Source of the DNA: Escherichia phage Henu7
DNA length: 49,526 nt
Strand: one strand, 5' to 3'
Sequence record: NC_054894.1
Of this stretch, positions 7,499 to 40,059 are shown piece by piece (within the stretch, counting starts at the first letter, position 1; the number at the start of each line of letters is the position of its first letter). Below the pieces are notes generated by a model. The model was not told the origin of the DNA, searched no databases, and saw only the letters and a list, made by a program, of their open reading frames with translations. The position numbers were made by a program, and so were the translations under genes.

Positions 7499-8116
7499 AT
7501 GCCAGTATTACAAGGTTACAAGGTTACAGGCAACCGTTACGCCGGAAGCAACACTCCAGATGTTGTCCGTGACCTTTGGGCTACTCCGCGCGATGTTGTC
7601 GCGTATATGGAAAGCCGCTACGGTAAATATGATCTTGATGCTGCGGCTAGCGAGGACAATAAAGTCTGTGAAAAATTCTACAGCAAGGAAACAAACTGCT
7701 TAAAGCGTTGGTGGGGTAGCAAGAAGCACGTATGGCTGAATCCTCCATATTCGAATCCAGATCCGTTTGTGCTCAAGGCCATTGAGCAAATGGAGCACGA
7801 AAACCAGATCGACATATTGCTTCCAGCCGATAACTCAACGGCATGGTTTAGCGATGCGCAGAAACATGCTGCGGAAATCATCTGGATTACTGGCGAAACC
7901 TGGAAAGATGAAGAAGGGCGCGAATATTCCCGAACCGGACGATTAGCGTTTATTTCCGGCCTGACAGGTGAGCCAGTTAGCGGCAACAACAAAGGCAGTG
8001 TGATCTTTGTGATGCGCAAATTGAAAGAGGGAGAAACGCAACAAACTCACTACGTGAAAATCAGCGATATTTGCCCGTCTGTAAAAAACAAGCGAGCCAA
8101 AGCAAGGAGTTTTTAA
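7499..8116 (+). CDS. DNA N6-adenine methyltransferase (phage Dam-like)
   Basis: Motifs DLWATPRDV, DLDAAAS and NPPYS typical of phage Dam-family amino-methyltransferases; weak RBS at 7499. Confidence 0.7.
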   Translation: MPVLQGYKVTGNRYAGSNTPDVVRDLWATPRDVVAYMESRYGKYDLDAAASEDNKVCEKFYSKETNCLKRWWGSKKHVWLNPPYSNPDPFVLKAIEQMEHENQIDILLPADNSTAWFSDAQKHAAEIIWITGETWKDEEGREYSRTGRLAFISGLTGEPVSGNNKGSVIFVMRKLKEGETQQTHYVKISDICPSVKNKRAKARSF

Positions 8117-35623: not shown

Positions 35624-36283
35624 ATGCATCTTCCAAACGGTTCACAGATTTTTATCGAAGCGTCTCGCGGCTCAGAGCTTTCCGCTAGCGCAATCAGCAA
35701 CGCAGAAAAGCCAGTTTTCACAATGGCTGATACTGGCGATCTCGAAAAGGGTAATTACGTCATTGTAACTGAGTCCTCGTGGGGTAAACTGCTTGATCGC
35801 GTACTGCGCGTTAGCGAGGTTTCCAGCAACTCAAGCGCAACGCTTGAAGGTATCGACACCACTGATACCAACGTGTTCCCTGCCGGAGCAACAGCGAAGA
35901 TCGCAAAGATTAACGCGTGGTCTGAAATCCCTTGCGTTCAGGATCTTGCGCAGGACGGCGGCGAGCAGCAGTATTATACTTATCAGTGCTTGTCCGACGA
36001 TCAAGAGCAGCAGCTACCTACCTATAAGAGCGCTGTTTCCCTGACGTACACCTTTGCGCACGAGTACGACAACTTGATCTATCCTCTGCTGCGTAAAGCA
36101 GATGAAAGCGGCGAAGTCACAGCAATGCGTATGTACGTACCGAAAGCGAAGGAAATGCGTTGCTGGGCTGGCGTGCTGTCATTCAACGAGATCCCGCAAA
36201 CTGCGGTTAACGAAATGGAAACTGTTTCCCTTTCTTGCTCGCTGAAAGGCCGATACACATTCCTTCCTGTATCACAGGATTAA
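35624..36283 (+). CDS. major tail protein
   Basis: RBS AAGGAG before ATG 35624; followed by strong terminator and then chaperone and tape-measure genes. Confidence 0.5.
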   Translation: MHLPNGSQIFIEASRGSELSASAISNAEKPVFTMADTGDLEKGNYVIVTESSWGKLLDRVLRVSEVSSNSSATLEGIDTTDTNVFPAGATAKIAKINAWSEIPCVQDLAQDGGEQQYYTYQCLSDDQEQQLPTYKSAVSLTYTFAHEYDNLIYPLLRKADESGEVTAMRMYVPKAKEMRCWAGVLSFNEIPQTAVNEMETVSLSCSLKGRYTFLPVSQD

Positions 36284-36287
36284 TCAC

Positions 36288-36312
36288 AAGGGGCGTTGCG
36301 CCCCTTTTTTAT
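36288..36312 (+). terminator. intrinsic terminator
   Basis: Hairpin GGGGCGTTGCGCCCC followed by TTTTTT. Confidence 0.75.
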
Positions 36313-36358
36313 TTGATGTAATATTACCCCAACATTTAACCACTAAGGAGAAACACCA

Positions 36359-36673
36359 ATGGCTAAAATGAAATTGACTCTTGCCCCGCTTCCAGACTTC
36401 AAACTTCCAGTTAAATTTGTGTTGCCGGATGGTAACGAGCAAAAAATTGTGTTTACAGTTAAGCATAAAAAGGCAAGCGAGATTCAAGCACTTTACCAGA
36501 AAGAAGGCATTAAAGATCCAGAATTCATCATGAATGTTGCGTCAGGTTGGGATCTGGAAGAAGAATTCAACGAAGAAAACGCGCAACTGTTAGTTGATTA
36601 TTACCCTAGCGCGGCGCTGGCACTAATGGGATCTTATTTAAGCGCTCTGGCAGGGCAGCGAGTAAAAAACTAA
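36359..36673 (+). CDS. tail assembly chaperone (G-like)
   Basis: Position between major tail and tape-measure genes; ends just after slippery heptamer A_AAA_AAC. Confidence 0.65.
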   Translation: MAKMKLTLAPLPDFKLPVKFVLPDGNEQKIVFTVKHKKASEIQALYQKEGIKDPEFIMNVASGWDLEEEFNEENAQLLVDYYPSAALALMGSYLSALAGQRVKN

Positions 36674-36987
36674 AACGGGCGGTTTATCTGTACTACCAGA
36701 AGCCGCCCACAGATGCAGAGCTTGAGGCCGTAGGTTTAACCCGCGCAGACTATGAAGGCGAGGAGCCGCCGGAAGTTATATTTGATGAATCAATGATGCA
36801 GTCATGGGATGTATTCTGCGCAATGCAGACTCAATGGCGATCTGCTGGTGGCGGCGCTTATGGCCTTGATTACAATGTTTTGCCTATGTTGTTCAAAATC
36901 TATAAAATAGACGATGAAGAAATGGCATTGAACGACTTGCGGATCATGGAAAGTAAAGCGCTCGAAATGATGCACGCAGGAAAATAA
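36359..36987 (+). CDS. tail assembly chaperone GT-like fusion via programmed -1 frameshift
   Basis: Slippery heptamer A AAA AAC at 36664..36670; the -1 frame is open from 36610 to the stop at 36987; this matches the conserved G/GT arrangement upstream of the tape measure. Confidence 0.6.
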
Positions 36988-36988
36988 A

Positions 36989-37015
36989 CGAGCGCCTTTT
37001 GGCGCTCTTTTCTTA
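36989..37015 (+). terminator. intrinsic terminator
   Basis: Hairpin AGCGCCTTTTGGCGCT followed by a T-rich run. Confidence 0.6.
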
Positions 37016-37029
37016 TCTGGAGGTACTTA

Positions 37030-40000
37030 ATGGCGGAACAATACGCAGGCTTGACGTTAGGCGTTGACGTTCAGCAGGTAAACAACGCAGTTAAATCCCT
37101 GAGGGATTTTAAGACCGCTTCCGAGGGTGCGGCTGATGGTCTTGAGTCTTTCGTCAATGAGGAGCAGATTGCCAGACAGAGAGCCAAAGATTTGGCCTCA
37201 GAGCTTGCAAAGCAGAGAAAGGAATTTCAGAGCGTACAGGCCGCAATAGATCCGACTGCGGCAAAAATGGAGCGACTAAAGGTTGCTGCGGCTGACCTTG
37301 ATAAGCTTTGGAAAAATGGAGTGGTTCCAGACGAGACATTTTTCCAGCTTGGAGAAATGATTGAGGCTCAGACAAACAAGCTTGCAGCAAACAGAAAAGC
37401 GTTAACGGCTGAGGGCATGGCGGCAATCGAGGAGTCAAAGCAGAAAGCTAAAGCGGCGGCTGAGGCTCAGAAATTCATTGCGGCTCTTGAGGCGCAAGCT
37501 GCTGCTGCTGGCAAGACGCAATCCGAACTGATGGAAATGAAAGCGGCTCAACTTGGTGTTACAGCGCAAGCGGCTCCATTCATTGAGAGAATGCGCCAGC
37601 AAGAGCAAGCGACACAGAAACTTGGAATCTCAATGGGTCAGTATAACCAAGCTATGCGAATGCTTCCGGCTCAGATCACTGACGTTGTAACGTCGCTTGC
37701 TTCCGGTATGCCTGTTTGGATGGTTGCAATTCAGCAGGGCGGTCAGATTAAGGACTCTTTCGGCAGCATAGGGAATGCATTTCAGGGGCTGAAAGATTTA
37801 ATCCTTGGTGCGGGCGTAGATATTAATGAATCTCTGGATGAAACCAGCGAAAACGCCAACGATCTTGCTGAGGGTTTTAATAATATAGCCGATGCTGGCG
37901 GTAGGGTTGGCGGTCTCGCTAGGTTCATTAACCCAGTAACCATCGGTGCGGTTGCCCTTGTTGGTGCTATCGCAGCAATTGCAAAAGCTGGTTTCGATGC
38001 GTGGAAGTCACAAAGGGATCTGGCTAATGCTTTGGTAATTACTGGTGGATATGCTGCCACTACCACAGGGCAGATTGACGATCTGGCGAATGAATTGAGC
38101 GAGACTTCAAGCGCAACTTCCGGAAGAATCAAGGATATCGCGTCAACTTTGGCATCCTCTGGGAAATACACTGTTAGCCAGATTAAGACCATTACCAAGA
38201 CTACTGCGGAATGGGAAGCGCAAACAGGAGAGAGCAGCGATAAAATCAAAGGGTACTTTGACATGATTTTAAAAGATCCTGTCAAGGGTCTTGTCGAACT
38301 TAACGATAAATTCAACTTCCTGAATGAAGGGCAGCTAACCTATATTGATACACTGAGCAAAACCAAGGGCGAGGTAGCAGCAGCAGATGAAGCGACAAAA
38401 CTATTTGCTGAAACGATGGATAAGCGACTGAAAGATGTGGCTGACAGCGCAACACCTCTTGAAGATATGTGGATGGATATCAAGAAGTGGGCGTCAGATG
38501 CATGGGATTGGGTTGGGGATCACACGATGGCGGCGCTTAACCTGATCATTGACGTTGTAGCCGGAACGGTTGAGCAGGTTCGTTATTTGCTTAATCAGGG
38601 TGATATTCTCATTGGTGAATTTATTATATCTGCAACAAATGCTATGCAAAAAATACCTGGTCTTGATGGTGTTGGTGACTCAGTAATTGCAAAGCAACAG
38701 AATATTATAAATAACGCTAAGGAGAACAACAAGGAGCTATTAAAATCAATTGCCGAACGTAACGAGCGAGTCAAAAAAGGCGAGCAGGGTTACATTGACA
38801 TGATGAAAAATCGTGCAGCGGTTGAACAGCAATATGCGACAAAAACAAAAGAGAATATCAGGAAGGAAGCCGAGGAATTAGCTAAGCGCAACAAAAAGCA
38901 AAAGGCTGAAAAAGCTAAGGTATCGGCTGGCGATAAGCTGGAAGAACAATATCAGCGTGATATCCTTGCGCTAGAAACTCAATTAAGAGTTTTGAAAGAG
39001 CACAAGACGATCACAGATACAATAAGCCAGCAACGTAAATCTTTATGGGCTGAACAAGCTAAAATTCAGATTTTGCAAGAAGCCTCAACAAAACGGCAAC
39101 TTACTGATGAAGAAAAAAGCATTTTAGCAAACAAAGATAAGATCCTGGCGATGGCTGAACAAAAAGCTATTTTGGGCGATCAGATTGTTGCGCAAACGCG
39201 CCTTAATCAGTTGCAAGATAGCTCAATCAAGTTTATCCAGCAGCAGAAAGCAGCAACGGAAGCACTAGCCAAAACCAGAGGGTTAAGTGAACGTGAAGCA
39301 GCAAGAGCGGAGGAACGTGCAAAGGTTGAGGCTGATTATCTTGCCAAAGGAGGCAAGGAAGGAGATCCGCAACTCACCGCAATGATGGATGAATTAGACA
39401 ATCGCTATAAAGAGGAAGATGCTAAACGTGCTGATTGGTTGGCTGGCGCTAAAAATGCCTTTGCGGAGTACGGCGAGGAAGCAATGAACATGTATGATAA
39501 TATCGGCAACATTGCGAGCCAGGCGCTAAACGGCCTATCGCAACAAATGTCTGATTTTTTGACTACTGGACAAGCCAGCTTCAAAGACTTTGCAAAATCG
39601 ATCATTAGCATGATTGTTCAGATGATCACAAAGATGGTTATCTTCAATAGCATTTCCGGCATGATGGGCGGCTCAACCTGGACAATGGGATCGCTAATGA
39701 GCGGCTTCTCGTCTGGTGGGTACACTGGCGACGGCGGAAAGTATGATCCGGCTGGCATTGTTCACAAAGGCGAGTTTGTTTTCACTAAGGAAGCAACGCA
39801 GCGAATCGGCGCTCGTAACCTTTACCGCCTGATGCGTGGATATGCAAACGGCGGCAGCGTTGGCGGCTCAGGTTACAGCAGGGCTTCAACTGGCGGCGCT
39901 GGACTTGCTTACTCGTTCGGTGATATCAACGTTGATATCAACAACGGGAGCGATCCAAAAGGTCTTGAAACTGGTGTTAGAATGCTTGTTGCTGATATGC

Positions 40001-40059
40001 TCAAGCGTGAAATGGGTCAAGGCGGCAGCATTTATAATTTCGTTATGGAAAGGAGGTAA
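37030..40059 (+). CDS. tail tape measure protein
   Basis: 1009 aa, coiled-coil-rich, Gly-rich C-terminal region; canonical position. Confidence 0.85.

Follow-up and report, generated by a model that had tools for sequence, protein, structure and literature searches.

A probable G/GT-type programmed -1 frameshift in the tail assembly chaperone cassette of Escherichia phage Henu7

The tail module of Escherichia phage Henu7 (NC_054894.1; the window referred to below is the whole analysed stretch of 49,526 nt) very probably encodes an extended tail assembly chaperone, produced by a programmed -1 frameshift of the G/GT type at the heptamer A_AAA_AAC. Frameshifting of this ordinary type serves long-tailed phages to produce such an extended protein in small quantity. 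Judged from sequence comparison, this reading is assigned a probability of roughly 90%. It had been put forward in the initial annotation of the region and is supported by the protein families of both parts, the gene order of the tail module, the coding pattern of the shifted frame, the absence of a Shine-Dalgarno (SD) sequence before the downstream ORF and the conservation of the slip site. Frameshifting at this place is already known in T1-like phages, being annotated in phage U136B and described for phage Skenny; what is reported here is a gap in annotation and not a discovery.

Reading frames, protein families and tail module

The G-like ORF ends with ...GTA AAA AAC TAA, by which AAAAAAC is placed in the X_XXY_YYZ phase needed for tandem -1 slippage (Table 1). 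The heptamer was initially reported in this ORF three codons before the stop. Its presence and phase were confirmed, and its first base does lie three codons ahead of the stop, in GTA, but the TAA directly abuts the heptamer and AAC is the last sense codon of G. The -1 frame is free of stop codons from 36610 to the TAA at 36985..36987, and the ATG at 36793, located 41 codons after the slip site, is the earliest ATG, GTG or TTG in this frame. Since the frame is stop-free from 36610 and contains none of these start codons before 36793, the separately listed ORF 36793..36987 is the tail of the open -1 frame, which agrees with the initial annotation both in the extent of the frame to 36987 and in the nature of the short ORF. 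The second reading frame overlaps the first without a start and ribosome binding site of its own. The predicted GT fusion (36359..36670 joined to 36670..36987) comprises 209 amino acids (23.7 kDa) with the junction ...AGQRVKN-LKRAVYLYYQKPP..., and the predicted sequence around it reads ...QRVKN-LKRAVYLYYQ.... Among the first codons after the slip (36670-36681) are AAA and two rare ones, CUA for Leu (rare in E. coli) and CGG for Arg, the latter replaced by AGG in some relatives.

Both parts were assigned to protein families. The G-like ORF belongs to PF08748 (Phage_TAC_4, tail assembly chaperone; E = 1.5e-36, 125.8 bits against a gathering cut-off of 21.1), with residues 1-104 aligned to profile positions 1-124 of 124, and the T1 homologue of G also matches this family. 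The -1 extension was identified as PF08809 (DUF1799; E = 2.8e-13, 50.3 bits against a gathering cut-off of 26) by residues 22-101 on profile positions 2-80 of 80. This match begins at 36733, 20 codons upstream of the earliest start codon. The family phrog_17368 (213 positions) covers both parts as one protein, G at positions 1-107 and the -1 part at positions 109-210, and fused proteins of exactly this type are therefore already present in phage databases. A sequence search against solved structures gave no meaningful match.

Henu7 is a T1-like siphovirus (Drexlerviridae, Tempevirinae, Henuseptimavirus). The records nearest to the region are those of Enterobacter phage vB_EclS_AS5 (99.5% identity) and Escherichia phage IsaakIselin (96.5%), which are both classed in the same genus. 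According to the Pfam and PHROG assignments (Table 1), the gene order of the tail module is the V-G-T-H-M-L-K-I-J order of phage lambda. Both chaperone ORFs are flanked by the tube and tape measure genes, as in the arrangement of Xu et al. 2004 for G/GT cassettes, and the conserved layout upstream of the tape measure gene that had been pointed out initially was found in Henu7 as well.

Table 1. Features of the chaperone cassette and of the surrounding tail module of Henu7 (positions refer to the window)
Feature	Position	Strand	Basis
Tail terminator gene	upstream in module		PF13554
Major tail (tube) protein gene, 5' neighbour of the chaperone cassette	35624..36283	+	PF08813 Phage_tail_3, E = 3.6e-62; phrog_584 major tail protein
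Terminator-like hairpin followed by T-run, interval between tube gene and G	36288..36306	+	hairpin scan; equivalent T1 site annotated as rho-independent terminator
Shine-Dalgarno AAGGAG, 8 nt upstream of the ATG of the G-like gene	36345..36350	+	read from sequence; anti-SD duplex -9.1 kcal/mol
ORF of the G-like tail assembly chaperone (104 aa, 11.7 kDa by standard decoding)	36359..36673	+	ORF coordinates; PF08748 over full length
Slippery heptamer A_AAA_AAC in 0-frame phase; AAA AAC are the last two sense codons of G	36664..36670	+	sequence and relatives
0-frame stop TAA of G, abutting the heptamer	36671..36673	+	sequence; position kept in relatives as TAA, TGA or TAG
T-like extension, 105 aa and stop codon, predicted to be read in the -1 frame	36670..36987	+	open frame; PF08809; phrog_17368; substitution pattern
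Predicted RNA hairpin, 8 + 4 bp, candidate frameshift stimulator	36677..36708	+	folding prediction; 6-nt spacer to the heptamer
64-aa ORF annotated in the nearest records, Met-containing tail of the -1 frame	36793..36987	+	same frame; no Shine-Dalgarno
Terminator-like hairpin followed by T-run, interval between T stop and tape measure gene	36990..37007	+	hairpin scan; equivalent T1 site annotated
Tape measure protein gene, 1009 aa, 3' neighbour	37030..40059	+	PF06791 TMP_2, E = 1.8e-52; PF09718 Tape_meas_lam_C, E = 2.6e-22; phrog_24
M-like gene	downstream of tape measure		PF05939
L-like gene	downstream of tape measure		PF05100
K-like gene	downstream of tape measure		JAB + NlpC/P60
I-like gene	downstream of tape measure		PF06805
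J-like gene	downstream of tape measure		PF24801 + PF13550 + PF09327 (lambda J-type domains)

The G-T cassette is bracketed by two strong terminator-like hairpins, the second of which precedes the SD sequence of the tape measure gene. This suggests that transcription is attenuated after the gene of the abundant tube protein. An Rfam scan of 36200..37200 recovered no known frameshift element; its sole hits were sRNA matches below threshold, located at the two terminator-like hairpins.

The slip site in Henu7 and its relatives

The heptamer by itself is no rarer than chance, AAAAAAC being present 16 times in the window compared to 15.1 expected occurrences. In-frame motifs of the type X_XXY_YYZ are found about once per 320 codons (51 in 16,394 codons of ORFs of at least 100 aa), and the chance of one such motif in the 21-codon G/T overlap is approximately 6-7%. 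It is the context and the conservation of the site, and not the heptamer alone, that exceed chance.

A second in-frame A_AAA_AAC (8083-8089) precedes the stop of a methyltransferase-like ORF (7499..8116, containing an NPPY motif) by 10 codons, and the -1 frame there is open for 47 codons. It was judged to be a chance occurrence and is probably a coincidence; the downstream ORF possesses its own ATG (MKDD...) and resembles a separate small membrane protein.

For the relatives, 80 distinct G-T DNA sequences were collected from IMG/VR and GenBank, in which the identity of the G protein goes down to about 40%; a close set of 27 distinct sequences has G proteins at least 69% identical. In the close set, GTA AAA AAC TAA is invariant (27/27), and the five preceding codons are all variable at third positions. 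In the wide set, A_AAA_AAC is found at the equivalent site in 59 of the 80 sequences, including T1 itself, and G_GGA_AAC in 12, which form the most distant, GC-rich group. The remaining sequences carry A_AAG_GTC (five, tetramer A_AAG), A_AAA_GCC (one, tetramer A_AAA) or A5 in place of A6 (three). A slippery heptamer stands directly before the G stop, be it TAA, TGA or TAG, in 71 of the 80 distinct relatives, with an A_AAG or A_AAA tetramer in six more. Throughout the wide set, the base preceding the heptamer codons is always matched to the heptamer (GTA, GCA or CGG). Judging by these comparisons, the site is conserved by its slipperiness and not by its sequence.

Some of the relatives deserve separate mention. 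In the GC-rich contigs (G about 41% identical), the same position is occupied by G_GGA_AAC with TAG behind it. A T1-like lineage of ~47 kb reads GCA AAG GTC TAA at the G stop (locus position ~1500-1515), and one contig reads GCA AAA GCC TAA there. Only the tetramers A_AAG or A_AAA are available in these sequences, yet the same -1 T frame (LKRAV...) is present, which implies slippage of a single tRNA-Lys in those relatives. Three IMG/VR contigs (L059, L067 and L088) contain GTAAAAACTAAA at locus position ~1505, with A5 instead of A6, by which T is moved to the +1 frame of G. Homopolymer sequencing errors are the probable cause, because two of the three (L059 and L088) carry further indels; L067 differs by A5 alone.

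Probable decoding of the -1 frame and candidate stimulators

The stretch of 41 codons without any start that separates the slip site from the ATG at 36793 was compared in the 27 relatives of the close set. Of the 41 sites at each codon position, 12 vary at position 1, 8 at position 2 and 37 at position 3. Among the codon differences, a fraction of 0.79 is synonymous in the -1 frame, as opposed to 0.04 in the G frame and 0.13 in the third frame. The substitution pattern is of the coding type solely in the -1 frame, so that this stretch appears to be translated in the -1 frame though nothing can initiate there; no start codon upstream of the heptamer was found in the -1 frame of any relative in the close set. 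The slippery site is conserved and the shifted frame is under coding selection. This pattern, together with the Pfam and PHROG matches reaching into the same 41 codons, argues against the absence of any recoding, in which case the downstream ORF would be an independent 64-aa gene starting from the ATG at 36793, as given in the records of AS5, IsaakIselin and T1. Several database records do annotate the downstream ORF separately, and the ATG exists and is kept as Met in relatives. It is not, however, preceded by an SD sequence: its anti-SD pairing (-0.1 kcal/mol) is worse than that of about 80% of random positions, compared to -8.4 to -12.9 kcal/mol at the starts of seven neighbouring tail genes. 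An independent ribosome binding site and start in relatives, named in the initial annotation as evidence that would speak against a frameshift, was looked for and was not found. The records also differ in the start codon chosen, which is the ATG equivalent to 36793 in AS5 and IsaakIselin, an ATG 30 nt later in Samwise and a TTG 72 nt earlier in Devorator and W011D; the latter is a mere synonymous Leu variant, absent in Henu7. An independent downstream gene is therefore regarded as extremely improbable.

The two-frame product could also arise at the level of transcription, if the RNA polymerase added one A in the A6 run (36664..36669), which would put T in frame and yield ...VKK-LKRAV.... A homopolymeric A6 is present, and the three related contigs with A5 indicate that the run is prone to indels, either in replication or in sequencing. 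Known productive cases in bacteria involve runs of about 9 A or T (PMC5009743), compared to which six is short, and the relatives with G_GGA_AAC, A_AAG_GTC or A_AAA_GCC have no long homopolymer, yet have kept ribosomal slip motifs and the two-frame layout; slippage of the polymerase is accordingly held to be very improbable. A further possibility concerns the same product formed by another ribosomal slip, in which AAC occupies the P site and the slowly decoded UAA the A site, so that a single-tRNA -1 slippage competes with termination and the stop is part of the signal. The 0-frame stop abuts the heptamer in 71 of the 71 heptamer-bearing relatives, it varies between TAA, TGA and TAG, its position being kept but not its sequence, and the rare Leu codon CTA, which creates the TAA, is strongly preferred; in one plant virus, a nearby stop codon influences -1 frameshifting (PMC5009743). 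Conservation of the stop should be weakly informative, though, because a conserved Leu-Lys in the T frame would give a stop in the G frame for four of the six Leu codons. In the A_AAG_GTC group, moreover, the shift-prone tetramer and the stop are separated by one codon, and re-pairing of tRNA-Asn alone is expected to be poor, which leaves a stop-coupled slip unlikely.

In the preferred reading, a tandem -1 slip at A_AAA_AAC, most ribosomes translating 36359..36673 would stop at the TAA at 36671 and release the 104-aa G-like chaperone. A small fraction would slip back by one base with AAA (Lys) in the P site and AAC (Asn) in the A site, tRNA-Lys and tRNA-Asn would re-pair with AAA AAA, and decoding would restart in the -1 frame at CUA (36670..36672) and continue to 36987, giving the 209-aa GT-type fusion. 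By analogy with gpG and gpGT of lambda, and going by position and family names, coating of the tape measure protein would be the task of the G part, and the T part (DUF1799) would bring in the tail tube protein. We infer the synthesis of the fusion and its efficiency, as well as the role of the hairpin and these binding partners; in the literature searched, no experimental report of the fusion protein was found for any member of the Drexlerviridae.

E. coli ribosomes shift poorly at A_AAA_AAC, far less than at A_AAA_AAG (PMC5009743, PMC4066793), and do so at >0.1% without stimulators (PMC5009743, PMC4066793). In this host, -1 shifting does make use of both A_AA.A_AA.C and G_GG.A_AA.C, albeit with low efficiency (PMC4066793). 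Lambda requires a low GT:G ratio of ~1:30 (PMC5009743). A motif of low yield fits a chaperone system of this kind, because about 30 G are needed per GT in lambda. The weak heptamer may set a fixed low GT:G ratio in Henu7, possibly boosted by the hairpin at 36677..36708 and the adjacent stop.

This hairpin was predicted with a dG of -18.7 kcal/mol (z = -5.1), and none of 200 shuffled sequences was equally stable. A hairpin of the same type was obtained in approximately 45 of the 80 related loci, T1 included. Prediction of secondary structure downstream of the heptamer, suggested initially as a check, thus provided a stable hairpin after a 6-nt spacer, but covariation was not seen and the structure is missing in some lineages. 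Counting of pairs in the relatives revealed none altered on both sides, RNAalifold run on the relatives chose a different weak helix instead of 36677..36708, and the hairpin is lost in lineages which encode the same R-A-V...K-P-P residues by other codons. A role of the hairpin as stimulator of the frameshift is plausible on the basis of the folding model. Its 5' arm is made up of rare Arg and Ala codons, which hints at selection on RNA structure and not on codon usage. In the GC-rich contigs, a different GC-rich hairpin is located 7 nt downstream (-15 to -18.5 kcal/mol), which is no better than shuffled sequences.

An upstream SD-like stimulator was considered in AGGG (36652..36655, 8 nt before the heptamer) and rejected; the motif results from Ala-Gly codons and is replaced by GGC or GGT in relatives. 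That the adjacent stop contributes to the slip signal is a conjecture, though it could do so. Beyond this, the signal of the Drexlerviridae might consist of the weak heptamer, the abutting 0-frame stop and, in many lineages, a stable hairpin 6-7 nt further on, which together would set the GT:G ratio by a termination-coupled -1 slip. The hairpins in this combination are built from rare Arg codons (CGG/AGG). We consider such a combined signal unlikely; if true, its mechanism would be distinct from that at the G_GGA_AAG site of lambda, whose stop sits several codons downstream.

Gene models and comparison with known systems

The correct gene model of the cassette would consist of G (36359..36673) and a joined GT coding sequence (36359..36670, 36670..36987). 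Two separate ORFs are annotated in the records of AS5, IsaakIselin, Samwise and T1, and a joined frameshift coding sequence is present in only some Drexlerviridae records, e.g. MW598258. The second chaperone ORF is annotated inconsistently among OR753409, MZ501077, OY639337, NC_005833, OL539461 and MK778457, with three different start codons, and across Drexlerviridae records its product is called anything from 'hypothetical protein' to 'tail length tape measure protein'. The value of the present analysis lies in the correction of the annotation for Henu7 and for vB_EclS_AS5, IsaakIselin, Samwise and T1, in which a 'hypothetical protein' or two genes with an arbitrary second start are listed. 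Nothing new is added to the biology of tail assembly or of recoding.

Two other recoding systems share parts of the signal. The dnaX gene of E. coli (A_AAA_AAG flanked by an SD upstream and a hairpin downstream) has in common with Henu7 the A-rich heptamer, the shift-prone tRNA-Lys and a hairpin a few nucleotides on. The last base of the heptamer is C in Henu7 and G in dnaX, C being far less shift-prone in E. coli (PMC5009743), and a conserved upstream SD-like element is absent from Henu7, unlike in signals of the dnaX or IS911 type. The shift lengthens the product in Henu7, whereas it shortens that of dnaX. The weak heptamer A_AAA_AAC itself is shared with insA-insB' of IS1, for which a -1 frameshift without an established stimulator, yielding a small amount of fusion protein, is proven (PMC4066793). 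IS1 encodes a transposase and not a chaperone, so that the biology is unrelated, and Henu7 has the predicted hairpin and the adjacent stop in addition.

With G/GT of phage lambda, where the -1 frameshift takes place at G_GGA_AAG (PMC5009743, reviewing Levin 1993 and Xu 2004/2013), the cassette of Henu7 shares two overlapping ORFs between the tube and tape measure genes, a second ORF in the -1 frame without its own start, a slippery heptamer close to the end of the first ORF and the order of the remaining tail module (M, L, K, I and J homologues). The protein families are different, PF08748 and PF08809 in Henu7 versus PF06894 (Phage_TAC_2) and PF06223 (Phage_tail_T) in lambda. Neither the G nor the T part of Henu7 matches PF06894 or PF06223, while lambda's own G and T do, and a direct comparison by hhalign, covering the G part alone (its alignment versus lambda G), gave a probability of 0.1%. 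Because neither part matches the Pfam families of lambda, the roles are assigned by analogy of position and by Pfam naming; by this analogy, the cassette works like G/GT of lambda but lies outside its sequence families. The signals differ as well: the heptamer of Henu7 is A_AAA_AAC, weak in E. coli, instead of G_GGA_AAG; its stop abuts the heptamer, whereas, by the coordinates of the record, the annotated T frame of lambda starts 18 nt before G ends; and, unlike in lambda, a stable hairpin is predicted 6 nt downstream.

The closest counterparts are found among the T1-like phages. Escherichia phage U136B (MW598258) has the same site with an identical GTAAAAAACTAAAAC and a G protein 97% identical to that of Henu7, and its record contains a joined coding sequence with the note 'frameshift product'. 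Klebsiella phage Skenny, also T1-like, carries the same gene family, and its authors state that a frameshift analogous to G/GT of lambda occurs within the tail assembly chaperones (PMC6763657). Between Henu7 and these two phages there is no difference of substance.
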